Origin: Pedosphaera sp. | GTDB lineage: Bacteria > Verrucomicrobiota > Verrucomicrobiia > Limisphaerales > SXTU01 | DNA length: 38,216 nt | Assembly (NCBI GenBank): GCA_009695395.1 | Contig: SIBB01000001.1 | Span: forward strand, 1 to 38,216 | Reading direction: 5' to 3' | Part shown: positions 12,203-36,877 of the stretch, one piece after another | How the letters are laid out: each line of letters opens with the position of its first letter | How positions within the stretch are numbered: position 1 is the stretch's first letter | The notes under the pieces: model-generated | What the model was told of the DNA's origin: nothing | Databases searched by the model: none | The model's input: only the letters and a program-made list of their open reading frames with translations | Made by a program: the position numbers and the translations under genes

Positions 12203-12211
12203 GGTCGCATC

Positions 12212-12439: not shown

Positions 12440-12514
12440 ATCAACTGGCCCGAAAAAGTGCAGTCACGTCGCCCTTCTAAAAGCTGCCTTTTCCACCTTC
12501 TACGCACTAAATTC

Positions 12515-12556: not shown

Positions 12557-12617
12557 TCTACGAATCGCGAACAAAAATTAAATAGTCACATTAACCATCA
12601 GCCAACAGAATAGAAAT

Positions 12618-13709
12618 ATGTCCCAGGAATCCAAAAGCAGCCCCGGAGCGAAAGATGCCACTTGGCAGCCAGAAATCAGCGACGTCGAAGCAGTCAAAAA
12701 ACTGAAGCAGGCGCGAGAAGACATCACCTTGGAATTGCGGAAAGCGATCGTCGGGATGGACTCGGTCATTGACGAGGTCCTCATCGCGATTTTCTCCCGC
12801 GGTCACGCGCTGCTTGAGGGTGTGCCCGGCCTTGCCAAGACATTGTTGGTGAGTTCCATCGCCAAGACCCTTTCGCTCTCCTTCAAACGCATCCAGTTCA
12901 CTCCCGACCTCATGCCGTCCGACATCACCGGCAGCGAGTTGTTGCAGGACGACGCGGTGACCGGCGCCCGCCGTTTCATGTTCAGCAAGGGACCGATCTT
13001 CGCGAACATCGTTCTGGCCGACGAAATCAACCGGACCCCGCCCAAGACGCAGGCGGCGCTGCTCGAGGCCATGCAGGAGAAGATGGTTTCCGCGGGCGGC
13101 GAAGACTTCGAGCTCGATCTGCCATTCTTCGTTCTCGCCACGCAGAACCCTCTCGAACAGGAGGGCACCTACGCACTTCCTGAGGCGCAGCTTGACCGCT
13201 TCATGTTCAAGATCCATGTCGGCTATCCGAGCCGCAAGGAGGAGATCGGCATCATGCGCAGTGTAACCGGCGGCAAGCGCGCGCCGCTCTCCCAGGTGCT
13301 CAGCAAAGCGGACATCCTCGCACTCCAGGATCTGGTTTCTCGCGTGCCGGTGGCCGATCACATCTTCGAGTACGTCGCCACCCTAGTGCGGGCCACCCGC
13401 CCGATGGAGGAACAGGCCCCGGGGTTCATCAGGGACTTCGTCTCGTGGGGCTGCGGGCCGCGTGCCTGTCTGAATCTGATTACCGGTGCGAAAGCGCGCG
13501 CCATCTTGCACGGCCGTTTCAACGTGTCGGTGGAGGACGTCCAGGCTCTCACTGTCCCTGTCCTGCGTCACCGCATGGGGCTCAACTTCGCCGCCCAGTC
13601 TGAAGGGGTGGATGCCGAGCACGTGGCTAACCGCCTGCTTAAGGAAATCCCCAGCGACGAATCGCTCTACAAGTGGAACCCGAACACCCCGGCAGCGGTT
13701 CGCGCCTGA
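12618..13709 (+). CDS. MoxR-family AAA+ ATPase
   Basis: Walker A is LLEGVPGLAKT (nt about 12819-12842) and Walker B is IVLADEINRTPPKTQAALLEAMQE. Other MoxR-type motifs: FFVLATQNPLEQEGTYALPEAQLDRF and GCGPRA. It is the first gene of the plus-strand block. Confidence 0.95.
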   Translation: MSQESKSSPGAKDATWQPEISDVEAVKKLKQAREDITLELRKAIVGMDSVIDEVLIAIFSRGHALLEGVPGLAKTLLVSSIAKTLSLSFKRIQFTPDLMPSDITGSELLQDDAVTGARRFMFSKGPIFANIVLADEINRTPPKTQAALLEAMQEKMVSAGGEDFELDLPFFVLATQNPLEQEGTYALPEAQLDRFMFKIHVGYPSRKEEIGIMRSVTGGKRAPLSQVLSKADILALQDLVSRVPVADHIFEYVATLVRATRPMEEQAPGFIRDFVSWGCGPRACLNLITGAKARAILHGRFNVSVEDVQALTVPVLRHRMGLNFAAQSEGVDAEHVANRLLKEIPSDESLYKWNPNTPAAVRA

Positions 13710-13837
13710 GTGGCCGGCAAATCGCATGATGAGCGTGCTGCCAGCGCCACCGTTTCAAAACATGCTGGGGACGCTTACCGGACCCCGGCGCATCAAATGC
13801 CTCCGAACCCGCTCCGCTGCGATGCCTGACTCATTGA

Positions 13838-14812
13838 ATGATGGATTCTAAAACCGTTCCAGCCTCTGCCACTGTCGGCGCTTCACGGGCCGTGGTGGAC
13901 CCGTCCAAGCCACGCGCCAAGGCCCAATACCTCGACCCGGCGACCCTCAGCCGCATCGGTTCGCTCGAAGTGGTGGCGCGACAGGTGGTCGAGGGTGTCC
14001 GCATCGGTCATCACAAAAGCCCGGCGCGCGGCGTGAGCAGTGAATTCAACGCCTACCGCCAATACACGCAGGGCGACGAAACGCGCCACATTGACTGGAA
14101 GGCCTACGCTCGGAGCGACCGCTATTACGTCAAGCTCTTCGACGCGGAGACGAACTTCGTCTGCAACCTCCTGCTCGATGCCAGCAAGTCGATGACTTAC
14201 TCGTCCGGGAAAATCTCGAAGATCGAGTATGCCAAGTATCTGGCCGCCAGCCTGGCGTATCTGGTGGTGGATCAGGGCGACTCGGCCGGGATGGCGATCT
14301 TCGACGGCAAGCTGCAGAAATACGTCGAGCCGAAGGGCAGCAAGCGGGTGCTGCAGGACATGTCGAATGAGTTGGAGAAGGTCGTGCCGCAACCGCGCAC
14401 GAACGTGGGAGCGATCCTCCACGACTTCGCCCACCGCATGAAGCGGCGCGGGTTCGTGATGATCTTCTCGGACCTTTTCGACAACACCGACGAATTCATC
14501 GCCGGCCTCAACCATCTTCGTTTCGGCGGGCACAACGTGGTGCTTTTCCACATCCTCGATCCCTACGAGATCGAGTTCCCGCTCGCCGGCATGTGGAAAT
14601 TCCTCGGTCTTGAAGGCGAGGGCGAGGTCATCACCCAACCTTCCCGCGTCCGCGCCAACTACCTCAAGGAACTCGAAGAGTTCGTCGGCAAGATCCGCAA
14701 GGCCTGCGGCAAGGCGCAGGTGGATTACGTGTTGGTCAACACGGCTCAACCCGTCGAGCAAACCATCTCCAGCTATCTCATCCAGCGCACCGCGCTGGCG
14801 AACGCCCGCTGA
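13838..14812 (+). CDS. DUF58 domain protein (vWA-fold partner of MoxR)
   Basis: Family motifs: GHHKSPARGVSSEFNAYRQYTQGDETRHIDWKAYARSDRYYVK, and the MIDAS-like LLLDASKSM (DxSxS). It has the canonical position directly after moxR. Its stop overlaps the next ATG by 1 nt (TGATG). Confidence 0.9.
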   Translation: MMDSKTVPASATVGASRAVVDPSKPRAKAQYLDPATLSRIGSLEVVARQVVEGVRIGHHKSPARGVSSEFNAYRQYTQGDETRHIDWKAYARSDRYYVKLFDAETNFVCNLLLDASKSMTYSSGKISKIEYAKYLAASLAYLVVDQGDSAGMAIFDGKLQKYVEPKGSKRVLQDMSNELEKVVPQPRTNVGAILHDFAHRMKRRGFVMIFSDLFDNTDEFIAGLNHLRFGGHNVVLFHILDPYEIEFPLAGMWKFLGLEGEGEVITQPSRVRANYLKELEEFVGKIRKACGKAQVDYVLVNTAQPVEQTISSYLIQRTALANAR

Positions 14813-16674
14813 TGATTTTCCGCCCGAACAAACTAGCTCTCGCCCTGGCTCTCGCCGCTCTCGCGTCGGGGTTGACTGTGCGGGCTGCGGACGAGGTGAG
14901 TTCGGCGAATCATCCGGTCTTGAAGCGCGCCCTCGCGGAGCATCCCACGGCGGACGCCGATGCCAATGGCACCCTCTCACTGGCCGAATACGGCATCCTG
15001 CAAAAGAAGCCGCTCGTGCAGCCGCCCGCGCAGAAAGACAAGCCGGCGGTCGCGCCTTTGCCGCCTCTCCCGCCCGTCCTGCCGAATGGCGACGTGGTCG
15101 TGTCCGAGTTTGAGGAACCCAATTCGTACAAAGCCTCGGGCTGGACCAATGAAGGCGCCGCCTTTCAGGGCGACCTCGCCGCCGGCACCCGGATGATGAG
15201 ACGCCGAGTCGGTCCTTTTCAGGGAGCGGTTTTCCTCACCACCCACGCCAAATCCGAGTCCGAGATCGGACGTCTTCTCTCGCCGCCTTTCGCGCTCGAT
15301 CTCGATTTCGTCGCTGTCACCATGAGCGGCGGCAGGTTTCCCCAGCGGGTCGGCGTGAACCTGTGGATCGGAGACGAGATGGTCCGCAGCGCCACCGGAA
15401 ACAACGACGACAACTTTGAGACAGTCGCCCTAGACGTGCGCGAATTCCGCGGGCGCATGGCCCGGGTGGAACTCATTGATCAGCACCGCGGCATCTGGGG
15501 ACACCTCAACGTGGATCGCATCGTCCTCACCGCCAAACCCCGCGAGGGCCGCCGCATCGACTCGCGTCCGCCGCCGCCCGCGCTGCTCCCCGGACTTGCC
15601 CTTACCACGACCGGGCGGCAGGCTGGCCCTCTCGCGGTCACCGGCGGGCAACTCACCTCAGCCAAGACGCCGCTCGCGGCCGGGAGCATTCTTTTGGCTC
15701 TCAACGCGCAGGAATCCTCGGCTGATCCGGCACCCAACACCCCGCCACCCAGCGCCGTGCAGTTGATCAGCGGGGAAATCTGGCACGCGCAGATTGTGGG
15801 CCTGGAGGGAAAAACCCTTGCCATCAACAGCCCGCTCATCGGCCAGCGCAAGCTGCCCCTCGAAAGCCTCGCCAGCATCGAATTTCAATACGCCGACCCC
15901 TACGCTCCGCGCGAACCCGGCCACCTCTACCGCACTGGCGCCGAGCCGATTCCCGGCACGCTGGTGTGGATTCGCGACAGAGACATCGCCGTGGACTGCC
16001 CGCTCGGCGTGATTCCCGTGGACCGTCCGGCTGTCGAGCGTTACGTCCTCGCCACGCCCAAACCCGCGGAACCCTCCGGCGCGGATGTCGTCGGGCTTGT
16101 GGGTGGCGGACTGCTGCGGGGGAAGACCGCTTTTGCCGGAAACCAGATCGTTGTGACCCACGCCATCCTCGGCGAACTGAAACTGGACTGGCAAACTGTC
16201 GCCTACCTGCGGCGCGCCGCACCCGGCATGGACTGGCTGGAGGATCTGGCGATGACGGTGGAGGAGCGCCCCGCGCTCTCTTTGCCGCCACCGATGCCGC
16301 AATGGATCGAGGGCGACGTTGACAGCCACCTGCGCGCGCTCCGCATCATGCCGGAGAGCGTGGTCCGCTTCGCCCTGAAAACCAACGCCGGGGGCAAAGG
16401 CCGGGTTCGTGGGGAAATCGCCACCGTGCGCGGCTGCCGGGCCGCGATGAAAGTCACCATTCTCGCCGGCGACACCGCCATTTGGAATCAAACCATCGCC
16501 GCCGGCAGCGCGCCCGTGCCGCTCTCGCTCGACTTCCCAGCCACCAAGCAACTCGCCATCAAGGTTGAGTTCGCCGGCCCGCTCGCCTTCCCTTGCGGAA
16601 TCGAACTGCGCGATCCGCTGGTGCTGAACCTCGCGCAACTCACAACCCAGCCACAATCCACCCAACCGAAATGA
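14812..16674 (+). CDS. Secreted hypothetical protein with an EF-hand-like Ca-binding loop and probable beta-sandwich modules
   Basis: Signal peptide MIFRPNKLALALALAALASGLTVRA. The loop DADANGTLSLAE (aa 47-58, nt 14950-14985) fits the 12-residue EF-hand pattern D-x-D-x-N-G-x-L-x-x-x-E. The middle (...GRLLSPPFALDLDFVAVTMSGGRFPQRVGVNLWIGDEMV...WGHLNVDRIVL) resembles ConA/LamG-like jelly rolls. The C-terminus (...MKVTILAGDTAIWNQTI...LAIKVEFAGP...) resembles NPCBM-like modules. Both fold guesses come from memory only. Confidence 0.7.
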   Translation: MIFRPNKLALALALAALASGLTVRAADEVSSANHPVLKRALAEHPTADADANGTLSLAEYGILQKKPLVQPPAQKDKPAVAPLPPLPPVLPNGDVVVSEFEEPNSYKASGWTNEGAAFQGDLAAGTRMMRRRVGPFQGAVFLTTHAKSESEIGRLLSPPFALDLDFVAVTMSGGRFPQRVGVNLWIGDEMVRSATGNNDDNFETVALDVREFRGRMARVELIDQHRGIWGHLNVDRIVLTAKPREGRRIDSRPPPPALLPGLALTTTGRQAGPLAVTGGQLTSAKTPLAAGSILLALNAQESSADPAPNTPPPSAVQLISGEIWHAQIVGLEGKTLAINSPLIGQRKLPLESLASIEFQYADPYAPREPGHLYRTGAEPIPGTLVWIRDRDIAVDCPLGVIPVDRPAVERYVLATPKPAEPSGADVVGLVGGGLLRGKTAFAGNQIVVTHAILGELKLDWQTVAYLRRAAPGMDWLEDLAMTVEERPALSLPPPMPQWIEGDVDSHLRALRIMPESVVRFALKTNAGGKGRVRGEIATVRGCRAAMKVTILAGDTAIWNQTIAAGSAPVPLSLDFPATKQLAIKVEFAGPLAFPCGIELRDPLVLNLAQLTTQPQSTQPK

Positions 16675-16678
16675 ACTG

Positions 16679-18886
16679 ATGGGATCACTGAATTCATTTG
16701 CCCTTTGGGGCGCACTTGGCCTGGCCGGCGTCGCCGTCCCGATCATCATCCACCTGCTTTACCGGAAGCACCGCAAGGAAACCGACTGGGCCGCCATGGA
16801 GCTGCTGCGTCGCGCGCTGGTCATCCGCTCCGGGCAGGTGAAGCTCGAGGATTACCTGATCCTCTTTCTGCGCTGCCTCGCGCTCGCCCTTCTGGCGTTC
16901 GCCCTCCTGCGGCCCATCATGAATGCGGCGGCGGACAGTTTGCTCGGTGAAAAGAAGGCCGGGATGATCATCGGGATTGATGCCTCGTTCAGCATGGGCC
17001 ACGGCGAGCACTCGCGGTTCGAGCGCGCCCTCGAGAAGGCCCGCCTGATCGTCAAAACCGCGCGGGAAGGCAACCCCATCACCATCGTCCTGATGAGTGA
17101 CCGTCCCAAGGTGCTGGTGCGCGGCGCAGGCTACGTCCCCGCGCAGGTCACGGAACTCCTCGGCTCCAAGACCACGGCGACGCCCTACCGCCTCGGCCTC
17201 GAACGCAATCTCGAACTGCTCAACGAACTGGCCGCGGAAATCAAATCGCCCGGCAAGGAAGTCTTCCTCGTGAGCGACTCGCAGGAACTCGACTGGGCGA
17301 ACCTCTCCTCGGCCGCCCGCGCCTCGTTCGAGCGACTCACCAAGAGCGCCAGGGTGTATGTAATTCCGAGCGGCATGGACGGCGAGGAAAACCTCACCTT
17401 GGAACGCCTCTCCTATTCGTCCGGATCACTGCGCCAGGCCGGCGTCGCGCGCTTTACGGCCGAGGTGCGCAATACCGGGCGTCGCACGGCCGATGCCGGT
17501 TCGGTGGAATTCTTCGTCGGCAACGAACTCAGCAAACGCCTCGCGGTCGGCTCGCTCGAACCCGGCCAGGTTCGCGGCCTTTCCTTCTTCGCGACCTTCG
17601 ACAAACCCGGCGACATCCGGCTCAAGGCCCAGCTCACCCCGGACGATCTCGCGGCCGACAACGTCCGCCACGCCGTCGCCCGCATCAGCTCCCGCGTTCG
17701 CGTTCTCTGCGTCGAGGGCGCCTCGAGTGGCTTGAACAAGGCTGACCGCACCGGTGGTTACTACGCCGTCCGCGCTCTGCGCCTCAAAGGCCGTGGGGAC
17801 GACAGCCCGATCAGGGTCCACCAGATCGAAGCCCCCGACCTCGTCATCGAACAACTCGGCGACTACGACGTGATCCTGCTCGCCAACGTCCCGGACCCTT
17901 CCGCGGAAACGGTGGGTCGCCTCAAGAAATTCGTGCAGCGCGGCGGCGGCCTGATTCTCTTTACCGGCGACCGCGTGGATGCCGACCAATACAACGATCG
18001 CTTCGGCAAAGGTGCCGACGGACTGCTGCCGGCCTCCATCGGCAAAGTCGCCAGCTACACCGGCGATGCGACTGGTTGGGCTATCGGGCCGGTAAAATCA
18101 GATCACCTCCTCGGAGGAGTGGTCTCCCGTCTGCCCGAGAAGCTGCTGGACAGCGCGCGCTTCAGCAAGCTGACCGGCGTTGAACCGGTGTCGGGCAGCG
18201 AAACGATCCTCTCGGTCGCGGAGACCGGCGCCCCCCTCCTGCTGGCCCGCGACTTCGGCGCGGGAACTGTGCTCCTTTTCACCACCTCTGCGGACCGGAC
18301 TTGGAGCGAACTCCCTGTCCACCCGCTTTACGCCATGCTCCTGCAGCAGGCCGTCACCCAGTTGACCAGCCGGCCTGACGCCTCGCAGTTCATCGTGGGC
18401 GCAGACGCCCCGCTCCCCGTGACCGGCCGCCAATTGGGCGAAAACGTCGCGCTGACCAAGCCCGGCGGCGAGGCCTCCTCCATCCGCGTCACGCAGAATC
18501 GCGACGAGCCGGTGGCGGCGGTCGAGTTCGATCAACCCGGCATCTACCAGATCGCGGCGGAGGGGCCAAAGCCCGGCGTGGTGGTGGCCGCCAACGTGGA
18601 CGCGCGGGAATCCGACGTGAAGGTGCTCGGCCCCGGCGCGCTCGAGACTCTGCTCGGCCCGATCGGCGTCACCGTGCTCGGCAAAGACGGCGACCTCGCG
18701 GCCGCCATCGAGAAGAACCGGCGCGGCAGCGAAATGACGCAACTCCTGCTCTGGCTCGCCATCGGGGTCTTCCTCCTCCAGAGCATCCTCGCCCGATACT
18801 TCACCAACAAAATCTCGCGCGACGACGTCCCGGACCTCACCGCCGCGCTGCAAAGCAGCAAGGTCGCCGCGGCTCGCCGGTCCTGA
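16679..18886 (+). CDS. BatA-type (aerotolerance-regulator N-terminal) membrane protein with vWA domain and GATase1-like module
   Basis: The N-terminus FALWGALGLAGVAVPIIIHLLYRKHRKETDW is the typical BatA/double-TM anchor. vWA MIDAS motif: IIGIDASFSM (DxSxS). GATase1-like block: RVLCVEG...YDVILLANVP...LKKFVQRGGGLILFTG. C-terminal TM: LLLWLAIGVFLLQSIL. Confidence 0.85.
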   Translation: MGSLNSFALWGALGLAGVAVPIIIHLLYRKHRKETDWAAMELLRRALVIRSGQVKLEDYLILFLRCLALALLAFALLRPIMNAAADSLLGEKKAGMIIGIDASFSMGHGEHSRFERALEKARLIVKTAREGNPITIVLMSDRPKVLVRGAGYVPAQVTELLGSKTTATPYRLGLERNLELLNELAAEIKSPGKEVFLVSDSQELDWANLSSAARASFERLTKSARVYVIPSGMDGEENLTLERLSYSSGSLRQAGVARFTAEVRNTGRRTADAGSVEFFVGNELSKRLAVGSLEPGQVRGLSFFATFDKPGDIRLKAQLTPDDLAADNVRHAVARISSRVRVLCVEGASSGLNKADRTGGYYAVRALRLKGRGDDSPIRVHQIEAPDLVIEQLGDYDVILLANVPDPSAETVGRLKKFVQRGGGLILFTGDRVDADQYNDRFGKGADGLLPASIGKVASYTGDATGWAIGPVKSDHLLGGVVSRLPEKLLDSARFSKLTGVEPVSGSETILSVAETGAPLLLARDFGAGTVLLFTTSADRTWSELPVHPLYAMLLQQAVTQLTSRPDASQFIVGADAPLPVTGRQLGENVALTKPGGEASSIRVTQNRDEPVAAVEFDQPGIYQIAAEGPKPGVVVAANVDARESDVKVLGPGALETLLGPIGVTVLGKDGDLAAAIEKNRRGSEMTQLLLWLAIGVFLLQSILARYFTNKISRDDVPDLTAALQSSKVAAARRS

Positions 18887-18905
18887 GTCCCAACTACCGA
18901 ATTCC

Positions 18906-21278: not shown

Positions 21279-21284
21279 CACTGA

Positions 21285-24676: not shown

Positions 24677-25731
24677 AACATTGCCCCATCACCAAAACCC
24701 TCGTCGCAACCTTGACGGCCGCGGCTTTCGTCGCCGCCTCGGTCCAGTCGGTCCGGGCGCAGGACGAGGGCGCTGGCGAGCAAGTCGTGGGCGTGGTGCG
24801 CCTGACCCCGGAAGTCCGCACCGCCATCACCAAGGGTTTGGATTATCTCGCCAAGGAGGGCGTGCAGAAAGCCGACGGAAGCTGGGGCACCGGGAATAAT
24901 GACGTGGCGGAAACGTCCGCGGCTCTCATGGCTTTCATGCTGAAAGGCTACATCCCGGGCCGCGGTGGCCGCTACGGCGTGGTCATGGAGAACGGGATCA
25001 CCTATCTCATCAACAAAGGCAAAGCCCAACGCGGGTTTCTGGGGACTCCCAACAACCACGCCGGCATGTATGAGCACGGCCTGGCCGTCCTCGCGCTGTC
25101 TGAAGCGTGGGGCCAAAGTAAGAACCCCGCCGTGGGGACCGCCCTGCGGGCCGGCGTGGACATCATCCTCCGCGCCCAAAGCACCCTCGGTGGCTGGCGC
25201 TACTCACCCACGCCCGCCGACGCCGATCTTTCCATGACCGTCATGCAGCTTGTGGCGCTCAACTCCGCCCACGAATCCGGCATCCAGATCCCCATTGCCA
25301 CCATTGAAAAGGCCGTCAAATACGTGAAGTCCTGCCAGGAAGAAGGCAGCGGAGGGTTCAAATATATGCCGACGAGCGGCGACGTCGGCTTTGCGCGCAC
25401 CGCCGCCGGGGTGATGTCCCTCATCATGACCGGCCAGCGCAACAGCAAGGAAGCGCAGCGCGGGCTGGCTTTCCTGAAGGCTTATCCCGACAAGAAGTTC
25501 GAGAAAGGCTACCCGCGCTTCCACTACGCGCACTACTACGCCATCCAGGCCATCTATCAGTCGGGCGAAATGGACTTCCAAAAGTGGTATCCCAAGATCG
25601 CCGCCACCGTCGTCTCCATGCAGGCTGCGGATGGAAGCTGGAATGGCGAAGGCGGCCCAGCCTTTGCCACCGGCATGTCGATCCTCATCATCGGCGTGCC
25701 TTACCGCTTCCTGCCGATCTACCAGCGCTAG
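24673..25731 (+). CDS. Exported prenyltransferase/squalene-oxidase-repeat (alpha/alpha-toroid) protein
   Basis: Signal peptide MKHCPITKTLVATLTAAAFVAASVQSVRAQ. Recurrent toroid-repeat motifs: DGSWG, GGWRYSP, GGFKYMP, DGSWNGEGG. Interleaved helices include DVAETSAALMAF, SMTVMQLVAL and ARTAAGVMSL. Confidence 0.75.
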   Translation: MKHCPITKTLVATLTAAAFVAASVQSVRAQDEGAGEQVVGVVRLTPEVRTAITKGLDYLAKEGVQKADGSWGTGNNDVAETSAALMAFMLKGYIPGRGGRYGVVMENGITYLINKGKAQRGFLGTPNNHAGMYEHGLAVLALSEAWGQSKNPAVGTALRAGVDIILRAQSTLGGWRYSPTPADADLSMTVMQLVALNSAHESGIQIPIATIEKAVKYVKSCQEEGSGGFKYMPTSGDVGFARTAAGVMSLIMTGQRNSKEAQRGLAFLKAYPDKKFEKGYPRFHYAHYYAIQAIYQSGEMDFQKWYPKIAATVVSMQAADGSWNGEGGPAFATGMSILIIGVPYRFLPIYQR

Positions 25732-25798
25732 CGTTGTCTGCCAGGCAGATTGTCTGTAGCACCGAATACGGACCACCGACCAGCCCACCAACCATTCG

Positions 25799-27796: not shown

Positions 27797-30700
27797 GCGC
27801 GCGGGGTCACATACTAATACTTCTCTCCGTTTTGCCATGGACGCTCGCCGCCCTGGCGGAGCCGCCCCCCAAGGACCCGCGGTGGGAGCAGGCGCAGAAG
27901 GCTTACAACGAAGGTTTCTCCGACGAAGGGCACCGGCTCCTCAAAGCCCTCATCGCCGACCACCCCGGCGATGTCGATCTGGCCGCGGCCTGCTACGAGA
28001 AGATTTTTGACCGAGAATATCGGATCCTGCCAAAACATGTGGCGATCAAAATTCTGGGCGAGCCCATGCACAGTCCCTGGCACGCCACCGCCCACTACAC
28101 GGGGGTCAACTCCAATATGCAGATCCCGCCCGCCGTGGCGCGCATGATGGCGCTCGAGCGGCTCGGCGGGCTTTCCGCCCATACCGCCCTTCTCCGGACT
28201 GCCTGCGGCGCCTCGGTCGAGGGCGGCCTCAACCGGCGCGCCTATATCGAACTGGAGGAGATGCTCTCCCGCATGCAGCGCGAAAACCCTCTCGACCCGT
28301 TCTGGCGGATGATGACTGCATACGCTTTCCAGCGCATGCAGCGCCCCGAGGCCGGGAAACTCGTCGTGGAACTCCGGCGGGATGTCGATCTCGACCATCC
28401 TGACCCCGGAGTGCGCAGTGACTGGATGGTGGCTGCCAGGATGTTCGAAGAGGGCTTCCCAGCAGGCGCCAATGTGAGGGCTGCCGTGCCGGAAGGAAGT
28501 CCGCTCCTTCTGCTGGCACCTGTCAATCCCGCCGATCCCGCCGACCCGTGGCGCATGATCGTGGATCGCTCCCCAAAAGATATTCCCGGCGAGGTGGACC
28601 GACTCATTGCGCTCGCTTCCGGTACCAGGGATTTACTGACGTGGGTGGATACGGAGGGCGGTGGAATTCATCCCACCCGCGCTCTCGATCTCCATCTGCT
28701 CAGCAAACCCTCCCCCGAACTCGACCCCCTGCGCAAGGCGCAGGAAAAGGTGTTCTCCCCCGAAGCCCAGGCCGCCATCCGCACCGAGGCGGACATCCTC
28801 AGAGTGAGCCGACGCTACGCCTGGGCGCGCCCCGCCCAGGTGCTCCAGATGAGAATCGCGAATGAGGCACTCTGGGACGGCCGCTTCGATTCTGCATGGC
28901 GCAGCTTTCAGGAAGTGTTCCTCCACACCTCTGACCCCGCGCTCCGCGAAGCCGCCCAAGTCGGCATCTGGACCGCCTTGGGCCTCTCCGGCGGCGCAGC
29001 GGAAGTGCTCGCACAACCCGCCGCCTTCGAACCCGCCAAGACCTACCCGTGGATGGGGCGCCTGATCAAGGGCTCCGAAATTCGCGCCGCCCTCCAGGCC
29101 ATGGTCCGACCCGCGCCGCCGGTCGTCGCTCCGTCGCTCCAGGATGTCCGCCCGCATCTCCTGAACCTCCCGCCGGTTGCTCCGTGGGTGATGAATACCC
29201 ACGCGGGCGGGGACTTTTCCATCGATCTCCAGGTGGCCGGCAATAAAGTTCTGGCCAGCGGGCGCAACCTCATCGCCGCCTACGACGCCGCAAAACCCGG
29301 CGCCCCGCTGTGGGCTCACGTGCAACAGTTCAGCAGCCCGCCCCATAATAATCGATCACCCTACCCCGGCTACTTCCGCGGACTAATCGAGGACGGGACA
29401 CTTTTTACCCGCTGGGGCAGGTCCGAACTGCCGAGTGGTCTGACCGCTTTTAGCCTCGCCACCGGTGATCCGCTGTGGACGGCGTTCGACGCGATACCCA
29501 AGGGGTTCAGCGGGGAAAATCTGCGGCAACAAAACCTCGTCCCAACCTGCGATCCGGTCCGGGCCGACGGCAGACTGTTCTACATGCACAGGTGCACCAT
29601 CGTCGACGCGGCAGACGGAGGCCGACCCAACTTAAGCCTCGTTTGCTTCGACCCCGGCGCCGCTCGGCCTCGTTGGGCGGCCCCGATTTTTGAGCCCACC
29701 CAAGCGGAACGCCCGCACTTCGACCGCAACTACACATACGCCTACGGCAACGCCGTCACCGTCCACCGTGGAGCCGTTTACAGTTGCACCGGCATCGGGT
29801 ATCTCATCCGCTCCGACGTGCGCGACGGCCGCGTCGAATGGACCCACAAGTATGCCGTGCGCGGTGGCGGAAGCGAGAGTCTCGGCAGCGCCCCCATCAT
29901 TGCCGGCAGCAACGTCATCTTCCTGCCCCGAAATGGGGAACGCGTCATCGCCCTCGACCAGCGCACGGGCTTTCTCGCATGGGAGAATCTCATGATTCGC
30001 GCCTTCGAAGTGCTCGGCCTCTGGCAGGACACCCTCGTGGTGCGCGGGCCCAACCACCTCGCGGGGATCGATGTCGCCACCGGGAACGCCCGCTGGATTC
30101 GGAACCTGACCCAGCGCGCCCTCACCCGCGGCCAGCTCATCGCCGATTCCGTTTACCTCGGGCAGCTCGACGCCCTGCAGCGGTTCGACGCCCGCACCGG
30201 CGAGCTGCTCGAAAGCCGGCCCTGGGCGCTCCAGCCCGAGCGCGCCCTCAGTTTCAACATTTCCGGCCAGGACCTTTACATCGCCACGGACCGGCCCGCC
30301 GCCGACCCCCACCAAAAAGTGAGCCAGCCTCCCGGCCCGGAAGTGGCCTCGTCCACGCAGCCGCTCAAGCTGCCTCTCAAACCCGCGTGGTCGCTCATGC
30401 GCCCGGGTGCCTCCCTCCTGCTCCCGCCCGCCGGAGTCAACCCCGGCACGGCCATTCTCCTGGGCGACGGCATGCTCGAGTGCCTCGAAGTCAGCGAACG
30501 CGGTGGCATCCGCTGGCGCCGCTTCCTTGATCTCAAGATCAACCAGCTCGTCATCCGCTACATCGGCAAGAGCGGAGAGATCCTCATGCTCATGGAACAG
30601 GGCGAGTCCCCCGAGAATCCCCCCCGGGCCCTCGCCCTCGACACCAAGACCGGCGCGACTCTCTGGGACACGACCGTCCCTCCCTGGCGCGACCCACCAC

Positions 30701-31563
30701 CCTCGTTTTGTGGCTCCCTGCTGATCTTCGCCAGCCACGCCCACCACTTGGGCGGCGGGGCGACCGCCATCGACCTCACCACGGGCAAACAACTTTGGCG
30801 GCGCTACCTTCGCAGCCCCGCCCCTCCGGTAGCCAAAGGGGACGAATCTCGTTTACTGCTTCTCGGCGGCCTCTGGATGCCGAAACCCGCCCGCGTGACC
30901 CTCAACGCGCAGACCGGCCAGACCATCGCGGACTCCCCGGAAAAATCCGCATTGCTACCCATGCTTTACACGGTCCACGGCAGAAATGGCCCCAGCGTTT
31001 ATCTCATCCCTCCGGTGGGAGACCCAACGGTCTTCCAGCCACAGGCCGTCATTGTGGACCACATCCCCGGGACTGGCGCTCCCTACTACCTGATCCGGCC
31101 CCGCGACGGTACTGACAAGATCCCCGAGGGCGTCTATCGCGCCGACGACCCATCCTACTTCTGCAGACTCCCGAGCGCTGACGTCCTGTTCGATGGCGAC
31201 TACGCCATCACCATCCATGGCAAATTCGCGGTCACTGACCTCAAAGCCAAACGCCTCTTGCCGCTCCCTGCGACGGACGAAAAGGCGGCCATCAACCGAC
31301 CGGGACTTCTCTGCCGCATCGGCCCCGATCGTTTGCTCAAACTCGTTGACCATGGCAGCGCTAAGAATGTCGTCTTCCTCATTGATCTTGCGAGCGGGGC
31401 CGTGACCGAGGGGAAACTCGAATTGCCGAGTCAGGACGGCCCCATTAACCTGTCGAACTACACCAACCTCACCCCTCAAAACCGGCCGTTTCTTCCGACC
31501 TTCGACCGCGTTTTCCTGACCTACGACACCACCACCATTACCGCTTGGATCGCGGCTCCCTAG
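27793..31563 (+). CDS. Giant secreted protein, paralog 1 (1256 aa): helical N-terminal region plus PQQ/BamB-like beta-propeller repeats plus unassigned C-terminal module
   Basis: The track ORF opens at 27418. I place the start at the ATG at 27793 (MSARGHILILLSVLPWTLAALAEPP, a signal peptide), which forms an ATGA overlap with the HEAT gene stop. Recurrent D/A-x-x-T-G-x-x-x-W propeller motifs: LATGDPLWT, RDGRVEWTHKY, QRTGFLAWEN, VATGNARWIRN, ARTGELLESRPW, TKTGATLWDT, LTTGKQLWRR. Confidence 0.8.
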   Translation: MSARGHILILLSVLPWTLAALAEPPPKDPRWEQAQKAYNEGFSDEGHRLLKALIADHPGDVDLAAACYEKIFDREYRILPKHVAIKILGEPMHSPWHATAHYTGVNSNMQIPPAVARMMALERLGGLSAHTALLRTACGASVEGGLNRRAYIELEEMLSRMQRENPLDPFWRMMTAYAFQRMQRPEAGKLVVELRRDVDLDHPDPGVRSDWMVAARMFEEGFPAGANVRAAVPEGSPLLLLAPVNPADPADPWRMIVDRSPKDIPGEVDRLIALASGTRDLLTWVDTEGGGIHPTRALDLHLLSKPSPELDPLRKAQEKVFSPEAQAAIRTEADILRVSRRYAWARPAQVLQMRIANEALWDGRFDSAWRSFQEVFLHTSDPALREAAQVGIWTALGLSGGAAEVLAQPAAFEPAKTYPWMGRLIKGSEIRAALQAMVRPAPPVVAPSLQDVRPHLLNLPPVAPWVMNTHAGGDFSIDLQVAGNKVLASGRNLIAAYDAAKPGAPLWAHVQQFSSPPHNNRSPYPGYFRGLIEDGTLFTRWGRSELPSGLTAFSLATGDPLWTAFDAIPKGFSGENLRQQNLVPTCDPVRADGRLFYMHRCTIVDAADGGRPNLSLVCFDPGAARPRWAAPIFEPTQAERPHFDRNYTYAYGNAVTVHRGAVYSCTGIGYLIRSDVRDGRVEWTHKYAVRGGGSESLGSAPIIAGSNVIFLPRNGERVIALDQRTGFLAWENLMIRAFEVLGLWQDTLVVRGPNHLAGIDVATGNARWIRNLTQRALTRGQLIADSVYLGQLDALQRFDARTGELLESRPWALQPERALSFNISGQDLYIATDRPAADPHQKVSQPPGPEVASSTQPLKLPLKPAWSLMRPGASLLLPPAGVNPGTAILLGDGMLECLEVSERGGIRWRRFLDLKINQLVIRYIGKSGEILMLMEQGESPENPPRALALDTKTGATLWDTTVPPWRDPPPSFCGSLLIFASHAHHLGGGATAIDLTTGKQLWRRYLRSPAPPVAKGDESRLLLLGGLWMPKPARVTLNAQTGQTIADSPEKSALLPMLYTVHGRNGPSVYLIPPVGDPTVFQPQAVIVDHIPGTGAPYYLIRPRDGTDKIPEGVYRADDPSYFCRLPSADVLFDGDYAITIHGKFAVTDLKAKRLLPLPATDEKAAINRPGLLCRIGPDRLLKLVDHGSAKNVVFLIDLASGAVTEGKLELPSQDGPINLSNYTNLTPQNRPFLPTFDRVFLTYDTTTITAWIAAP

Positions 31564-31567
31564 CAGC

Positions 31568-34500
31568 ATGAAACGTCCGATCCTGATTCTCACCGCCCTT
31601 TTCCTCGGAGCGCTCGTTGCGCCTGCGGCCGCACCCGCCGACGACCCTCGCTGGGCAGACGCGCTCAAGGCTTACTCGCAAGGCCTCCGTGAAGTGGGGC
31701 ACCGCCTCCTCTCCGCCCTTGCCGCGGAGCATCCCGGCGATCTCGACCTGGCCGCGGCGTGCTACGAGCGAATTCTCAAGAACGTAAGCCTCCCCTCCCC
31801 GAAAGCTCCGACGGTCACCGACAACCCCTGGATCACCCTCGCCACGGAACGGCTCCTCGCCCTCGAACGCCTCGGCGCCCACTCTGCGAATACAGATCTC
31901 ATCCGTTCCGCCGCCTCCGTCGAGAGTCGGCTCGCTGTCGCCAGAAGCCATTTCCTTGACGCGTTCGAGACGATCACCCGCCTGCGCGCCGAAAATCCTC
32001 ACGACCTTTTCTGGCGCATGACAGAGGTCCGCATCCTCCGCAGCATGGGGCTGCCGGAAGCCGACGCACGCATCGCGGAACTAAAGCAGGACTACGATCC
32101 CGACCATTCCGACCCCGGCAAGCGCGCCGAGTGGGAATGGATCGCCACGGAAATAAATCCTTCCGGCAATCCTCCCTTGGAGGCCCGTCCGGCGTGGGCC
32201 CGGCAGCAAGTGCGCGTGCCCGACCCCGTCCCCGTCCCTCCGGAGGGTAGCCCAGTCAGCCTGCTCGCCCCCGAAGATCCCGATGACCGCTGGCGCGTCA
32301 TCAATAATCCCTCCCCAAAAGGAGGCGTCGGTGCATTGGATCGCCTCCTCGGTTACACCTACGCCGCCGCCGAGGGCGTGCCGTGGCGGGCCGGCCGCGG
32401 TTTGCTCGATTCCAGCCGCGCGCTCGACCTGCACCTGCTCAGTAAACCCGCTCCCGAACTCGAAGCCCTGCGCCAGGAGCAGGAAGCGCAATTCGCCCGC
32501 CATGCGCAGGCTGCCGGCCGCACCGGGGCGGGCATCCTCGCGGCGAGCCGCCGCTATGCCTGGTCGCGATCGGCGCAGACGCTCCTGATAAAGTTCGCCA
32601 GCGAGGCGCTCTGGGACGGGCGCTTCGAATCCGCGGGGCGCAGCTTTCACGACGTGCTCCTTCACGCCTCTGACCCCGCGCTCCGCGAGGCCGCCCAGAC
32701 CGGCATCTGGACCGCCCTGGCTCTCTCCGGAGGGGCGGCGGAAGTGCTCGCGCAACCCGCCGCCTTCGAGCCCGGCAAGACCTACCCGTGGATGGGACGC
32801 CTGACCAAAGGCTCGGAAATTCGCGCCGCGCTTCAGGCCACACTCAGGCCCGCGCCGCCGGTTGTCGCGCCTTCTCTTCAGACCCTGCGCCCGCATGTCC
32901 TGAACCTCCCGCCGGTGGCTCCATGGCCATCGGGTGAATCCTCGGGGGGCTTCGGCGTCGATCTCCAAGTGGCCGGCAACAGAGTCGTGGCCAGCGCGCG
33001 CAACGTCGTCGCCGTCTACGACGCCGCCAAACCCGGCGCCCCGCTGTGGGCTCACGTGCAGCACCGCTCCGCCGCCCCTCCTCAGCACCACTGGCCCGGC
33101 TACTACCGCGGCCTCATTGAGGACGGCACGATTTTCTCACGCTGGAGCGTGACCGAACTGCCCAGCGGGCTGGCCGCCTTTGACCTCGCCAGCGGCGATC
33201 CGCTTTGGACTGCCCTGAGTGAAAATCCCTGGAACGATCGCGGGGGACCGCGGCCCAAGCGTTCCAGCGATGGAAAAAAGCAGCCGCTGCGTTTCTCGGT
33301 GCCCATGGGCGACCCGGTTCGGGCCGATGGCCACCTCTATTACCTGCAATGGGACTCCGCGCATGACCTCCACTCCAAACAAGGCACGCACCTGAACCTC
33401 GTCTGTTTCGACCCCAGCACCGGTCAGCCCCGCTGGACGGCTTCTCTCACCGATCACCGATTTGTGGGAGATTTCCGCAGTCCCACAACCGCCATCTACG
33501 GCAACTCCGTCACGGTCCATCGCGGAGCGGTTTACAGTTGCAACAACTCCGGCCAGATCTTCCGCTCCGACGTGCGCGACGGCCGAATCGAATGGGCTCA
33601 TAACTATCGCCACCACCCCACCAGCGCCGAGTTTCTCGGCAGCGCCCCCATCATCGCCGGCAGCAGTGTGATCTTCCTGCCCCGCGATTCGGGAGTCGCC
33701 GTCGCTCTTGATCAGCGCACCGGCTTTCTCGTCTGGGAAAATCCCTTCATCCGCGGCGCCGAGGCGCTCGGCATCTGGCAGGACACCCTCGTGGTGCGCG
33801 GTGTCGCCACTCTCGCCGGGCTCGATCTCGCCACCGGCAAGACCCGCTGGTCCCGGAATCTGACCGGGCGCACCCTCGACCGCTCCCAACTCATCGCGGA
33901 CTCCATCTACCTCGGCGGGGCCGACGCCCTCGTGCGGCTCGACGCCCGCACCGGCGAGTCGCTCGAAAGCCGCCCCTGGGCGCTCCAGTCCGAACGCGCC
34001 CTCACTTTCACCATCTCCGGCCAGGATCTTTACATCGTAACGGACCGGCCCACCGACGACCCTCGCCAAAAAGTGGGCCAACCCCTCGGCCCCGAGTTGG
34101 CCTCGTCCGCCGCCCCGCTCAAGCTGCCCATGCAGCGCGCCTGGTCGCTCTCGCGTCCCGATGCCACTGTCGCGCTCCCGCCCCCCGGCGTCAGCCCCGG
34201 CAGCGCCTACGTCATCAGCGACGGCCTCATCGAGTGCCTCGATGTGAGCCAGCGCGGCACCATCCGCTGGCGGCGCTTCCTCAATGCCAGCAGCCCCACT
34301 TTGCACTTCGTCGGCGACACGCTCCTCCTGCGGGAAAAGGAAGTCCCCCACCTCCCGTTTGGCCGCGTCCTGGCCATCGACTCCAAGACCGGAGTGACGC
34401 TCTGGGAAGCGCCCGTGCCCGTCAACCACCAGCACGTCTTCCACTTCGGCACCCGCATCCTTTTTCACGACGGACGCGAAAAACTCGTCGCCCTCGACCT

Positions 34501-35791
34501 CGCCACCGGCCAGCGGGCCTGGCAGGCCACGCTGGTGCCGGCCCATGCCCAGAATCCATACTGGGACGGCACGCGCCTGCATCTTTTTCGCGCCCCCGCC
34601 GCGGGCAATCTCGAGCACTTTACCTTCAACCCCGCCACCGGCGACACCGTCGCGCATCATGAGATCGACACGAGGCCGGAGGGTCAATCGGGTGCGAACG
34701 TCCGCCTGATCCCCGGCGGTGGCTACGAAGTCCGCTTCGCACCCACCTCGGCCCGTTACTTTCGCCTCACCACGCTCTCCAGCTCCGGTGGCACCGGTGA
34801 CTACGCTTCCGCCGCGGAGTTTTACCTGCTCGGCCCCGATCACAAGCGCCTGCCCCGCGACGGCTGGACCGCGACCGCCGATCACGAACCCAACGCCGGC
34901 CTCAGAGCCAAGCCCCGCAACGCCATCGACGGCGACCTCAATACATGGTGGCACTCCCAGTGGATGAATGGCCAGACGCCGCACCCGCACTATTTCACCA
35001 TCGACCTCGGCGCCGCCCAGACCCTTGGCGGCCTTCACTACCTGCCGGCGAAAATCATCAACAACAATGGCATGATCGCCGATTACGAACTCCACGTGAG
35101 TCAGGACGGCAAGGCATGGGGCGCGCCGGTTTCCAAGGGCAGCGTTACCGAAGCCGTCAGGGTCCGGATCCCCGAGCAAGCGGCATCCCTCCCCGCCTTC
35201 TTTGAGGCGCGCCGCTTTCTGCGGGGTGTGGCATCCGTCTATCGCTACGACGCCGCCGGCAAGGCCGTCGCCGTCTATGAAACTGGCAGCCTCCAGCGCG
35301 ACGCCGGACCCTACAGCCTCCTCTCCTTCCGCGACAAACCCGCCGGCCCGGAAACCCTCGTCGTGCGCCGCGCCGACGATCCATCCTACGTCTTCCCGCT
35401 CCCGGTTCCGAATGACCGCGCAAACCACTTCCAATTCGACGGCGACCACGCCATCTCCCAGCAAGGCAGACTCGAAATCATCGACTTTAAAGCCAAGCGC
35501 CTGCTCACCATCCCCGGCGACGAAAAATCGCCCATCCACCAAGCGGGATTCCTCTGCCGCATCGGCCCCGATCGTCTGCTCAAAATCGTCGTCCGCGACA
35601 ACAAGCAGCACGCCTTCAGCATCGACCTCCGGAGCGGGGAAGTCACCGAGGGGGCCTTCGAAAACCAGAGCGAGCCCATCGCCGCGAGCCGCCTCCTCCA
35701 GTCCGGCCACAAATCCCACTACCTGACCTTCGACCGCACCTTCCTCTCCTACGACAACACCACCCTCACCGCCTGGGTTGCCGCGCCATAG
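31568..35791 (+). CDS. Giant secreted protein, paralog 2 (1407 aa): same architecture as paralog 1 plus an inserted F5/8 type C (discoidin) module
   Basis: Signal peptide MKRPILILTALFLGALVAPAAAPA. It is collinear with paralog 1 from the N-terminus (DPRWADALKAYSQG...HPGDLDLAAACYERI) to the C-terminus (...FDRTFLSYDNTTLTAWVAAP). It starts 4 nt after the paralog 1 stop. Confidence 0.85.
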   Translation: MKRPILILTALFLGALVAPAAAPADDPRWADALKAYSQGLREVGHRLLSALAAEHPGDLDLAAACYERILKNVSLPSPKAPTVTDNPWITLATERLLALERLGAHSANTDLIRSAASVESRLAVARSHFLDAFETITRLRAENPHDLFWRMTEVRILRSMGLPEADARIAELKQDYDPDHSDPGKRAEWEWIATEINPSGNPPLEARPAWARQQVRVPDPVPVPPEGSPVSLLAPEDPDDRWRVINNPSPKGGVGALDRLLGYTYAAAEGVPWRAGRGLLDSSRALDLHLLSKPAPELEALRQEQEAQFARHAQAAGRTGAGILAASRRYAWSRSAQTLLIKFASEALWDGRFESAGRSFHDVLLHASDPALREAAQTGIWTALALSGGAAEVLAQPAAFEPGKTYPWMGRLTKGSEIRAALQATLRPAPPVVAPSLQTLRPHVLNLPPVAPWPSGESSGGFGVDLQVAGNRVVASARNVVAVYDAAKPGAPLWAHVQHRSAAPPQHHWPGYYRGLIEDGTIFSRWSVTELPSGLAAFDLASGDPLWTALSENPWNDRGGPRPKRSSDGKKQPLRFSVPMGDPVRADGHLYYLQWDSAHDLHSKQGTHLNLVCFDPSTGQPRWTASLTDHRFVGDFRSPTTAIYGNSVTVHRGAVYSCNNSGQIFRSDVRDGRIEWAHNYRHHPTSAEFLGSAPIIAGSSVIFLPRDSGVAVALDQRTGFLVWENPFIRGAEALGIWQDTLVVRGVATLAGLDLATGKTRWSRNLTGRTLDRSQLIADSIYLGGADALVRLDARTGESLESRPWALQSERALTFTISGQDLYIVTDRPTDDPRQKVGQPLGPELASSAAPLKLPMQRAWSLSRPDATVALPPPGVSPGSAYVISDGLIECLDVSQRGTIRWRRFLNASSPTLHFVGDTLLLREKEVPHLPFGRVLAIDSKTGVTLWEAPVPVNHQHVFHFGTRILFHDGREKLVALDLATGQRAWQATLVPAHAQNPYWDGTRLHLFRAPAAGNLEHFTFNPATGDTVAHHEIDTRPEGQSGANVRLIPGGGYEVRFAPTSARYFRLTTLSSSGGTGDYASAAEFYLLGPDHKRLPRDGWTATADHEPNAGLRAKPRNAIDGDLNTWWHSQWMNGQTPHPHYFTIDLGAAQTLGGLHYLPAKIINNNGMIADYELHVSQDGKAWGAPVSKGSVTEAVRVRIPEQAASLPAFFEARRFLRGVASVYRYDAAGKAVAVYETGSLQRDAGPYSLLSFRDKPAGPETLVVRRADDPSYVFPLPVPNDRANHFQFDGDHAISQQGRLEIIDFKAKRLLTIPGDEKSPIHQAGFLCRIGPDRLLKIVVRDNKQHAFSIDLRSGEVTEGAFENQSEPIAASRLLQSGHKSHYLTFDRTFLSYDNTTLTAWVAAP
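34700..35160 (+). other. F5/8 type C (discoidin)-like module inserted in paralog 2
   Basis: WTATADHEPNAGLRAKPRNAIDGDLNTWWHSQW...PHPHYFTIDLGAAQTLGGLHYLPAKIINNNGMIADYELHVSQDGKAWG carries the NAIDGD-x-x-T-x-W, 'F.IDLG' and 'Y...VS.DG..W' signatures. It is preceded by a partial discoidin-tail-like segment, ARYFRLTTLSSSGGTGDYASAAEFYLLG. Paralog 1 has no counterpart at the equivalent position. Confidence 0.7.
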
Positions 35792-36379: not shown

Positions 36380-36403
36380 CTCGGCCGGCGCTTCGACCGG
36401 CCC

Positions 36404-36850: not shown

Positions 36851-36877
36851 GAAATCCCGTGCGCCGTGCGAAGTGAA

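Follow-up and report, generated by a model that had tools for sequence, protein, structure and literature searches.

The analysis of a 38,216-nt stretch of DNA from Pedosphaera sp. (contig SIBB01000001.1 of assembly GCA_009695395.1; hereafter, the window) shows that eleven consecutive genes, g1–g11, which start with a gene for a MoxR AAA+ ATPase, form one conserved gene cluster and, as judged from their spacing and conserved order, very probably one operon. The core of the cluster, that is, g1 (MoxR), g2 (DUF58), g4 and g5 (membrane proteins with vWA (von Willebrand factor type A) domains), g6+g7 (a DUF4175 protein in two halves), and g8 (an exported toroid), recurs throughout the Planctomycetes–Verrucomicrobia–Chlamydiae (PVC) superphylum. 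The accessory set, formed by g3 (a beta-sandwich protein), g9 (a HEAT-repeat protein), and a propeller protein (g10 and g11 here), is gained and lost together, though five core genes separate g3 from the rest. With a probability of roughly 0.55, we read the cluster as a machine of envelope biogenesis or maintenance that spans the envelope, is powered by MoxR/DUF58, operates through metal ion-dependent adhesion sites (MIDAS), and has periplasmic partners; in view of the genetics of comparable operons, the proposed cellular role is the biogenesis or maintenance of the envelope and not aerotolerance as such.

The scan anchored at g8 (genome collection, best 80 of 179 matches, counts over loci with enough flanking sequence) shows g7 upstream in 60/69 loci, g6 in 41/42, g5 in 35/36, g4 in 33/34, and g3 in 28/30; downstream, g9 is seen in 72/78 and a propeller gene in 60/64 loci. 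Several misses in these counts are artefacts of the open reading frame (ORF) filter. We also performed a scan anchored at g5 in the metagenome collection (80 loci), which is blind to the presence of g8; here, g8 follows g6/g7 in 25 of the 28 loci with at least 5.8 kb of downstream sequence. The order g2–g3–g4–g5–g6–g7–g8–g9–propeller recurs in Verrucomicrobiales, Opitutia, Kiritimatiellia, Lentisphaerae, Phycisphaerae, and Brocadiia, and g8-anchored loci are also labelled Roseibacillus, Akkermansiaceae, Puniceicoccaceae, Tepidisphaerales, and various Planctomycetota. The taxon labels of metagenome-assembled genomes (MAGs) are those of the database records, and some of them are evidently mistaken: lake MAGs, for instance, bear the name "Akkermansia muciniphila", and members of the cluster "Euryarchaeota" or "Woeseiaceae". 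At the 5′ end, the cluster opens with moxR in five relatives (L085, L087, L095, L103, L121), and in a Tara Oceans relative a divergent gene is followed by the cluster starting at moxR; the DUF58 gene lies 3′ of moxR in the window, and the order is identical in L085, L087, and L147. The expected tie of the distal genes to the MoxR/DUF58/vWA genes is thereby supported, since synteny reaches far beyond close relatives, to many PVC classes.

Two types of loci separate the core from the accessory set. In fused-type loci, found in Planctomycetaceae/Pirellulaceae MAGs, DUF4175 is encoded by a single gene and g8 is present in 15/15 cases, with g9/propeller genes in 0/13 and g3 in 0/6; unrelated genes follow g8. 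In split-type loci, g6 and g7 are separate, g3 and g8 are present, g9 follows g8 in 8/8 cases, and the propeller gene is usual. The original prediction placed the boundary between a MoxR/vWA core and its cargo at position 24673, the start of g8. This boundary is wrong: the toroid gene is as constant as the vWA genes (25/28, as above), including the lineage without HEAT and propeller genes. Phycisphaerae loci stop after g8, and in one of them (L077) neither a HEAT nor a propeller gene is seen within 10 kb; the same locus has an extra 414-aa ORF (8576–9820) between g7 and g8. In two Kiritimatiellia loci, L051 and L060, the last two genes are swapped (g8–propeller–g9), and in L051 extra g3-like and g7-like ORFs are located downstream of g9.

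All eleven plus-strand ORFs exist at the positions originally described (Table 1), and the described junctions are reproduced base for base. The g2/g3 junction is TGATG at 14812, the g7/g8 and g9/g10 junctions are ATGA at 24673 and 27793, respectively, and g6/g7 is a GTGA overlap at 22937, with an alternative g7 start, ATG, at 22949. Thus, overlaps of 1 or 4 nt are seen at g2/g3, g6/g7, g7/g8, and g9/g10, and gaps of 4–19 nt at four junctions: 4 nt at g3/g4 (16675–16678), 19 nt at g4/g5 (18887–18905), 6 nt at g5/g6 (21279–21284), and 4 nt at g10/g11 (31564–31567). The junctions range from −4 to +19 nt, except for the gaps of 67 nt at g8/g9 (25732–25798) and 128 nt between moxR and the DUF58 gene. 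Tight spacing by itself is usual in operons; the cluster is considered a real unit because its colinear conservation is observed in more than 100 independent loci, and not because of spacing alone. Colinear order was seen for 80 loci of the genome collection and 80 of the metagenome collection. RNA folding of the 67-nt and 128-nt gaps yields no structure beyond that of shuffled sequence (z = +0.23 and −0.25, respectively); promoter and terminator consensus scans give matches at chance frequency and mark no internal boundary, and Rfam and tRNA scans of the window find none.

Table 1. Features of the window, with positions counted from its first letter.
Feature	Position	Strand	Product	Evidence or sequence feature
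g1–g11	12618–35791	+	eleven-gene cluster	all eleven ORFs present
g1	12618..13709	+	MoxR AAA+ ATPase, MRP type, cytoplasmic	Pfam AAA_3, E = 1.2e-60, full-length profile
g2	13838..14812	+	DUF58 protein, vWA-like fold, MIDAS DASKS	Pfam DUF58, E = 1.3e-42
g3	14812..16674	+	exported multi-domain beta-sandwich protein	AlphaFold2 (AF2) model, predicted local distance difference test (pLDDT) 80
g4	16679..18886	+	BatA-type inner-membrane vWA protein, MIDAS DASFS	Pfam BatA, E = 3e-12; VWA_2; CARDB
g5	18906..21278	+	vWA protein, MIDAS DSSRS	Pfam GATase1_like (PF07090), E = 2.8e-6
g6	21285..22940	+	N-terminal half of split DUF4175-like protein	21/27 orthologs match DUF4175 positions ~181–389
g7	22937..24676	+	C-terminal half of split DUF4175-like protein	6/13 orthologs match DUF4175 positions ~646–765
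g8	24673..25731	+	exported single-domain (alpha/alpha)6 toroid	weak Pfam SQHop_cyclase/Prenyltrans matches, at or below gathering score
g9	25799..27796	+	exported HEAT-repeat protein	Pfam HEAT_2, E = 1e-20
g10	27793..31563	+	exported 1256-aa propeller protein	Pfam PQQ_2, E = 2.5e-22
g11	31568..35791	+	exported 1407-aa propeller protein	Pfam PQQ_2, E = 1.6e-32; F5_F8_type_C, E = 1.4e-15
Upstream block	1–11884	−	typical PVC proteins of unknown function	
Small ORF	11942–12202	−	86 aa	
Small ORF	12212–12439	−	75 aa	MKGKRYTTEDKIRMLREADCGEKSVADI...WKKQFG
Downstream ORF	35861–37312	−	483 aa	no family match

The first two proteins of the cluster, together with the anchored vWA proteins, have the composition of a MoxR operon of the MRP subfamily: AAA_3 with a lid (AAA_lid_2, E = 2e-15) in g1, a DUF58 gene directly 3′ of it, and transmembrane-anchored vWA proteins with intact MIDAS. 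In g2, no signal peptide, transmembrane, or other hydrophobic segment is found, and g1 also has no export signal; g2 is presumably the cytoplasmic partner of MoxR. Every protein from g3 on has a transmembrane segment or a signal peptide (cleavable-type in g3, g7, g8, g10, and g11), which agrees with the earlier statement that nearly all downstream products are exported or anchored. The MIDAS motif D-x-S-x-S of g2 is kept in 34/34 relatives, that of g4 is invariant in 85/85, and that of g5 is kept in 97–101 of 107; the distal Asp of the site is likewise conserved. The three sites are thus under strict purifying selection. The three MIDAS proteins had been described as successive; the motifs themselves (DASKS, DASFS, DSSRS) are present, although g3 lies between g2 and g4.

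A MoxR ATPase, vWA proteins, and a beta-propeller protein encoded together might also point to a ternary biological-conflict (defence) system. In systems of this kind, reported in planctomycetes, the third component may be a beta-propeller, and the vWA protein is proposed to bind peptides under ATP-driven reorganization (Kaur, Burroughs, Iyer, Aravind, 2020; PMC7159879). A secondary Pfam match of g1 to bpMoxR (E = 7e-12) has the same tendency; however, AAA_3 (E = 1e-60) scores far better, and the P-loop is the standard GVPGLAKT, not the variant GXXXTAKS of the conflict systems. Further, the latter carry effector/EAD domains and occur sporadically, whereas Pfam detects no effector domains fused to the vWA proteins here, the components are exported, and the cluster is conserved vertically across the superphylum; PADLOC matches are limited to a generic HEAT model. 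A defence function is, hence, largely refuted.

The protein g4 (TIGR02226, E = 3e-16) consists of an N-terminal double-transmembrane hairpin, a vWA domain, a CARDB-like Ig domain, a GATase1-like/DUF7408 domain, and a C-terminal transmembrane helix; g5 has a transmembrane hairpin, a vWA domain, a GATase1_like domain, and a C-terminal transmembrane helix. Though g5 itself falls short of the BatA Pfam model, hhalign of g4 with the g5 family (probability 85%, E = 7e-6), which aligns 443 colinear columns, identifies it as a distant g4 paralog. The nucleophile of class I GATases is Cys; the GATase1-like domain of g5 is probably non-catalytic, as no Cys occurs in its consensus ERGGSLLMLAGP. The vWA domains of g4 and g5 are predicted to face the periplasm, since the loop connecting the two helices of the hairpin is strongly basic (positive-inside rule) and a transmembrane helix is present at the C-terminus; for BB0173, a member of the BatA family, periplasmic orientation of the vWA domain was shown experimentally (PMC5700661).

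The pair of vWA proteins brings the cluster close to the Bat operons. As in BatI of Bacteroides fragilis and in spirochaete Bat operons, whose composition is taken in part from PMC5700661, MoxR and DUF58 genes are followed by two paralogous vWA/MIDAS membrane proteins with BatA-type N-termini; unlike in Bat, g4 and g5 are much longer and have CARDB and GATase1-like domains added. Hence, the core claimed earlier, MoxR–DUF58–BatA, is present, even with two BatA-type paralogs, but it is not the Bacteroides Bat set and has a split DUF4175 protein instead. An aerotolerance or oxidative-stress system that supplies or manages periplasmic reducing power, in the manner of Bacteroides Bat, would fit the presence of a BatA_N domain and of two membrane vWA proteins after MoxR–DUF58, as well as the response of Borrelia bat-like genes to oxygen (PMC5700661). 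However, TPR, SH3 (BatC/BatE), and BatD families give no match in the eleven proteins at E ≤ 0.01, family profile searches reveal no redox domain in any of them, and the DUF4175, toroid, HEAT, and propeller proteins are foreign to Bat. The cluster also occurs both in aerobes and in obligate anaerobes (Kiritimatiellia, Brocadiia), and no specific function of Bat homologs is reported to have been demonstrated in spirochaetes (PMC3557215). Such a role is therefore considered improbable.

Sequence comparison identifies g6 and g7 as two halves of one known family, DUF4175. The N-terminal half, g6, has three transmembrane helices, a cytoplasmic segment of ~75 aa between the second and third of them, and periplasmic Ig-like domains; Big_7 is matched by 8/27 of its orthologs. 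The C-terminal half, g7, has a signal peptide of its own, a stretch of ~400 aa in which helix-forming residues are frequent, a low-complexity patch of G/E/K/D (residues ~440–520), and then a conserved C-terminal motif, QQLPPEFRQQVADYYETLAE. In Planctomycetaceae/Pirellulaceae MAGs, the fused g6+g7 is one protein of 1450–1530 aa, and the 1475-aa fused protein of L147 ends in the C-terminal motif of g7. TIGR02302 is not matched by the window proteins at E ≤ 0.01, and the search of PDB profiles with g6 and g7 yields no credible relatives. About 30 MAG contigs (loci L012–L049) start within the last 100–150 codons of g7, 5′ of g8, directly after the low-complexity repeat GEGKGEGKGEG... (window ~24250–24500); evidently, the G/E/K repeat of g7 breaks short-read assemblies.

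The core resembles the Rhizobium RL3499–RL3502 type more than Bacteroides Bat, because g6+g7 is a split DUF4175 protein. The other three genes of the Rhizobium leguminosarum operon presumably encode a DUF58 protein, a membrane protein of the BatA_N/vWA type, and, as RL3502, a DUF4175/TIGR02302 protein; like its counterpart in the window, the latter presumably has a conserved C-terminus and a region of low complexity. In both systems an MRP-type MoxR gene comes first, and the rest of the likeness would lie in these three genes; in the window, a DUF4175-type protein is indeed encoded downstream of the vWA genes, as g6 and g7 orthologs match DUF4175. The differences are that in the window the vWA gene is duplicated (g4, g5), DUF4175 is split in two, and a constant exported toroid and, usually, also g3, HEAT, and propeller proteins are added. 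RL3499, the MRP-subfamily MoxR of Rhizobium, has an important part in cell morphology and the integrity of the membrane (PMC3893208), and the whole operon, RL3499–RL3502, is reportedly required for normal cell morphology and an intact envelope (primary paper as cited in PMC5700661). Among the functions considered for this class of operons, one related to the envelope has the best support.

Within the cluster, conservation is highest for g8, which comprises a cleavable-type signal peptide and a single toroid of 310 aa. Its identity across PVC is 49–97% (best 120 matches), 68 columns are invariant in 24 sequences, and so is the C-terminus, GVPYR[FY]LPIYQR-COOH; the fused-type ortholog is 40% identical and retains the motifs. 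The search of PDB profiles yields a match to one domain of a squalene–hopene cyclase (SHC; E = 5e-11). The AF2 model (pLDDT 87) is similar in Foldseek, at a template modeling (TM) score of ~0.55–0.6, to AprG, single-domain SHC-like proteins, GH76, sugar epimerases, and TED (thioester) domains alike; no specific family is singled out, cyclases score no better than other toroids, and no metal or active site is identifiable in the model. Generally, squalene–hopene cyclases have two domains and a DXDD motif, and prenyltransferases have a Zn site (Asp/Cys/His). No DXDD motif is evident in the g8 sequence, and its assignment as a squalene–hopene cyclase or prenyltransferase beta subunit was rejected, as TIGR01787 and TIGR01507 score 24–27 bits with cut-offs of 323–431. 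The original "prenyltransferase-like toroid" is, hence, right as to the exported toroid fold, but not as to membership in the SHC/prenyltransferase families.

The first protein of the accessory set, g3, has a signal peptide and an N-terminal helical pair with an EF-hand-like loop (DADANGTLSLAEY); in the AF2 model, these are followed by a jelly-roll at residues 78–243, four small beta modules, and, at the C-terminus, another jelly-roll. EF-hand_1 is matched by one g3 ortholog. The protein itself has no match in Pfam, NCBIfam, or PDB sequences, with subregions tested at Pfam E ≤ 1 too, and its Foldseek matches are all of low TM score, to CBM51/CBM36, Cry toxin domain III, and BcsB-like modules. 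Residues 78–243 (window 15043–15546) are 41% identical to an insert in P0147, a GH32 protein of the fructan hydrolase type; this jelly-roll is probably a mobile, glycan-related module that is uncatalogued, i.e., has no Pfam model.

The C-terminal ~190 aa of the HEAT-repeat protein g9 are richer in beta-forming residues and have no significant Pfam match (E ≤ 1). Its earlier designation as a HEAT lipoprotein is correct for this genome, where HEAT_2 and the lipobox LAGC are both seen, but does not extend to the family, as the lipobox is present in just 13/66 orthologs, those of this genome and its nearest relatives. The propeller proteins g10 and g11 share a common plan: an N-terminal region of ~470 aa rich in helix-forming residues, BamB-type PQQ_2 propeller repeats (at residues ~535–1015, starting at ~470–535), and a conserved C-terminal region of ~200 aa; in addition, g11 has a discoidin (F5/8 type C, CBM32-like) domain at residues ~1090–1205, an insert of ~115 aa that is lacking in g10. 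Both the signal peptide and an alignment to the N-terminus of g11 support ATG 27793 as the start of g10. No credible Pfam match is found at E ≤ 1 for the N-terminal 470 aa of either protein or for the C-terminal 208 aa of g11. The two proteins are 51% identical over 1133 colinear amino acids and 43% over the last 220; both copies are present only in the closest relatives (L006, L008, L009), and most relatives have a single copy. The pair g10/g11 is a recent tandem duplication, with g11 as the ancestral single-copy form. Therefore, the two giant propeller proteins of the original prediction do contain PQQ_2 propellers, but they are tandem paralogs of one protein. The large proteins were not found to fall into a well-characterized family with an unrelated role.

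Two further assignments of the propeller proteins were considered. The g11 search of PDB profiles matches discoidin modules (E = 5e-20), BamB (E = 8e-10), and, over 50–120 residues, PQQ (pyrroloquinoline quinone) dehydrogenases (E from 1e-6 to 1e-3). A PQQ-dependent quinoprotein dehydrogenase was rejected, as its matches are partial and at the level of repeats (TIGR03075, E = 8e-4), and BamB is better. PVC membrane-coat-like (MC) proteins are large, combine a beta-propeller with helical repeats, and are located in the paryphoplasm/periplasm (PMC2799638). In these, an N-terminal propeller is followed by a C-terminal alpha-solenoid, whereas in g10/g11 the propeller follows the helix-rich ~470 aa and precedes beta-rich/discoidin parts; as the domain order differs and no helical-repeat region follows the propeller, MC membership was rejected as well.

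Carbohydrate-related features recur among these proteins, and one might suppose that g3 and g8–g11 are glycan-binding or glycan-degrading proteins, separate from the machine and adjacent to it through genome compaction or shared regulation. The CBM-like folds of g3 and its domain common to a GH32 enzyme, the CBM32-like discoidin domain of g11, the toroid fold that g8 has in common with GH76 and sugar epimerases, and sulfatase genes adjoining the cluster in Roseibacillus and in fused-type loci are all in line with this explanation. It is nevertheless unlikely, as no CAZy-type catalytic family is matched, the start codons of g8 and g10 overlap the stop codons of the preceding genes, the order is kept over class- and phylum-level divergence with g9 and g11 at only 26–35% identity, and g3 co-varies with g9/propeller across five intervening core genes.

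The main rival to the envelope machine is suggested by the Mxa system, in which MxaR, MxaS, and MxaA/C/K/L are all required for the loading of Ca2+ into methanol dehydrogenase, a beta-propeller enzyme of the periplasm that the same gene cluster encodes (PMC12276312). Similar to the window, Mxa combines MoxR (MxaR), a DUF58-type vWA protein (MxaS), membrane vWA proteins (MxaC, MxaL), and a periplasmic PQQ-type propeller (PMC12276312). By analogy, the cluster might encode a transient metal-insertion chaperone, without any stable trans-envelope complex, and the toroid and/or the propellers would be enzymes that require a cation, e.g., Ca2+. The PQQ_2/PQQ repeats of g10 and g11, the EF-hand-like loop of g3, and the enzyme-like conservation of g8, with invariant D, E, H, and C residues, agree with such a client role. 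However, the propeller matches BamB (8e-10) well above the quinoprotein dehydrogenases (1e-6 to 1e-3), fused-type clusters do without a propeller, no metal or active site is identifiable in g8, and simple metal insertion leaves no obvious part for the DUF4175 rod or the HEAT protein. Moreover, the propeller of the window is BamB-like and accessory, toroid, DUF4175, and HEAT proteins are absent from the Mxa cluster, and homologs of MxaF/I/J/G are not present in the window. A pure client role is thus possible, though clearly the less probable explanation.

If the cluster indeed encodes an envelope machine, a MoxR hexamer together with the vWA-like adaptor DUF58 would remodel, driven by ATP, the cytoplasmic faces of g4, g5, and g6, and the periplasmic MIDAS sites of g4 and g5 would bind acidic or terminal peptide segments of the partners and let go of them again. 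Alternatively, the MIDAS sites might hand a divalent cation to periplasmic partners, as proposed for Mxa. Candidate partners of the MIDAS sites are the acidic low-complexity patch near the g7 C-terminus and the invariant C-terminal tail of the toroid g8. Where present, g3, the HEAT protein, and the propeller/discoidin giant may constitute an additional periplasmic, glycan-facing set of scaffolds or clients. The closest precedent for such a mechanism is Mxa, and those for the function are RL3499 of Rhizobium and the DUF4175 proteins linked to division and the envelope (PMC7481262, PMC9275681).

Several observations weigh against the envelope machine. The MIDAS ligands named above are candidates that we infer from the proteins' features, and the Foldseek analysis of the AF2 model assigns the toroid to no specific structural family and reveals no identifiable active site. 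In one Lentisphaerae locus (L003, GCA_016873675.1, 10001–17917), the toroid–HEAT–propeller genes have no MoxR core within 10 kb, and three loci (L113, L114, L123) carry g1–g6 and then stop. Because of these loci, physical linkage is not obligatory, and in some lineages the cluster may be split into two loci. Finally, Plim_1414–1420 of P. limnophila, candidate relatives of unverified orthology, scored as non-essential in the laboratory.

A more specific version of the envelope machine would be a PVC-specific trans-envelope apparatus for envelope growth, for budding or division without the canonical FtsZ machinery, or for shaping and tethering of the enlarged periplasm. Here, MoxR would power, from the inner membrane, the toroid and the DUF4175 rod; the helical-plus-propeller giants, along with the HEAT protein, would serve as coat-like scaffolds in the periplasm. 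Leads in this direction, though not tests of it, are the ties of DUF4175 to division and the envelope and the conservation from Verrucomicrobia to Planctomycetia/Brocadiia: a DUF4175 protein is essential for division in Acinetobacter (PMC7481262), and in Rhodobacter a TIGR02302 (DUF4175-type) gene and a MoxR gene both belong to the CenR regulon of envelope and division genes (PMC9275681). An essential role in the divisome is argued against by the non-essential Plim_1414–1420, with the same caveat of unverified orthology, and so specialized an apparatus appears rather doubtful.

In the open-access literature (on Bat, the Rhizobium operon, Mxa, conflict ternary systems, and PVC genome evolution, including Kamneva et al., 2012), no published description of the PVC-wide MoxR–DUF58–vWA–DUF4175–toroid cluster or of its HEAT/propeller extension was found, as anticipated for the extended cluster. 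MRP-type MoxR/DUF58/vWA operons (Bat, RL3499–RL3502, and similar ones) are very widespread; apart from methanol dehydrogenase, we know of no partner or target of them. The cluster offers phylogenetically stable candidates for periplasmic partners, namely the near-constant toroid and the co-varying trio of beta-sandwich, HEAT, and propeller/discoidin proteins, and shows how DUF4175 is related to these candidates, so that the question of the targets of MoxR/vWA machines is turned into one of specific, testable partners in PVC bacteria. It also provides the first genomic context for large PVC protein families named "hypothetical", "terpene cyclase/mutase family protein", and "BamB", the latter two names being misleading.

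Double copies of the cluster in three MAGs (99.3%, 82%, and 90% nucleotide identity) were attributed to bin redundancy or strain mixtures and rejected as paralogous clusters. The toroid–HEAT–propeller trio of L003 follows riboflavin-synthesis and beta-CASP genes, and its propeller protein has 1624 aa. Sulfatase genes adjoin the cluster in unrelated lineages (~17245–19161 in L001/L002/L011; 1435–3030 in L147); the Roseibacillus sulfatase beside the cluster is fused to an F5/8C domain, and in the window a sulfatase gene is located upstream, at 6297–8120 on the minus strand. It belongs to the divergent upstream block, whose other members are DUF1501, PSCyt2/PSD1, SGL-LRR, DUF1552, and DUF1592/1588/1585/1587/1595 cytochrome-like proteins. 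Between this block and moxR, a region of 733 nt (11885–12617) has a lower G+C content (~0.58) and contains the two small minus-strand ORFs of Table 1, the 75-aa one of which presumably resembles a helix-turn-helix fragment of an IS3-family OrfA. The 483-aa ORF downstream of g11 is probably over-extended, as by eye only its C-terminal ~170 aa look coding. At the nucleotide level, a contig of a Lake Zurich MAG shares 95% identity with the window; for a second lake MAG the value is 88.7%, over 21 kb.

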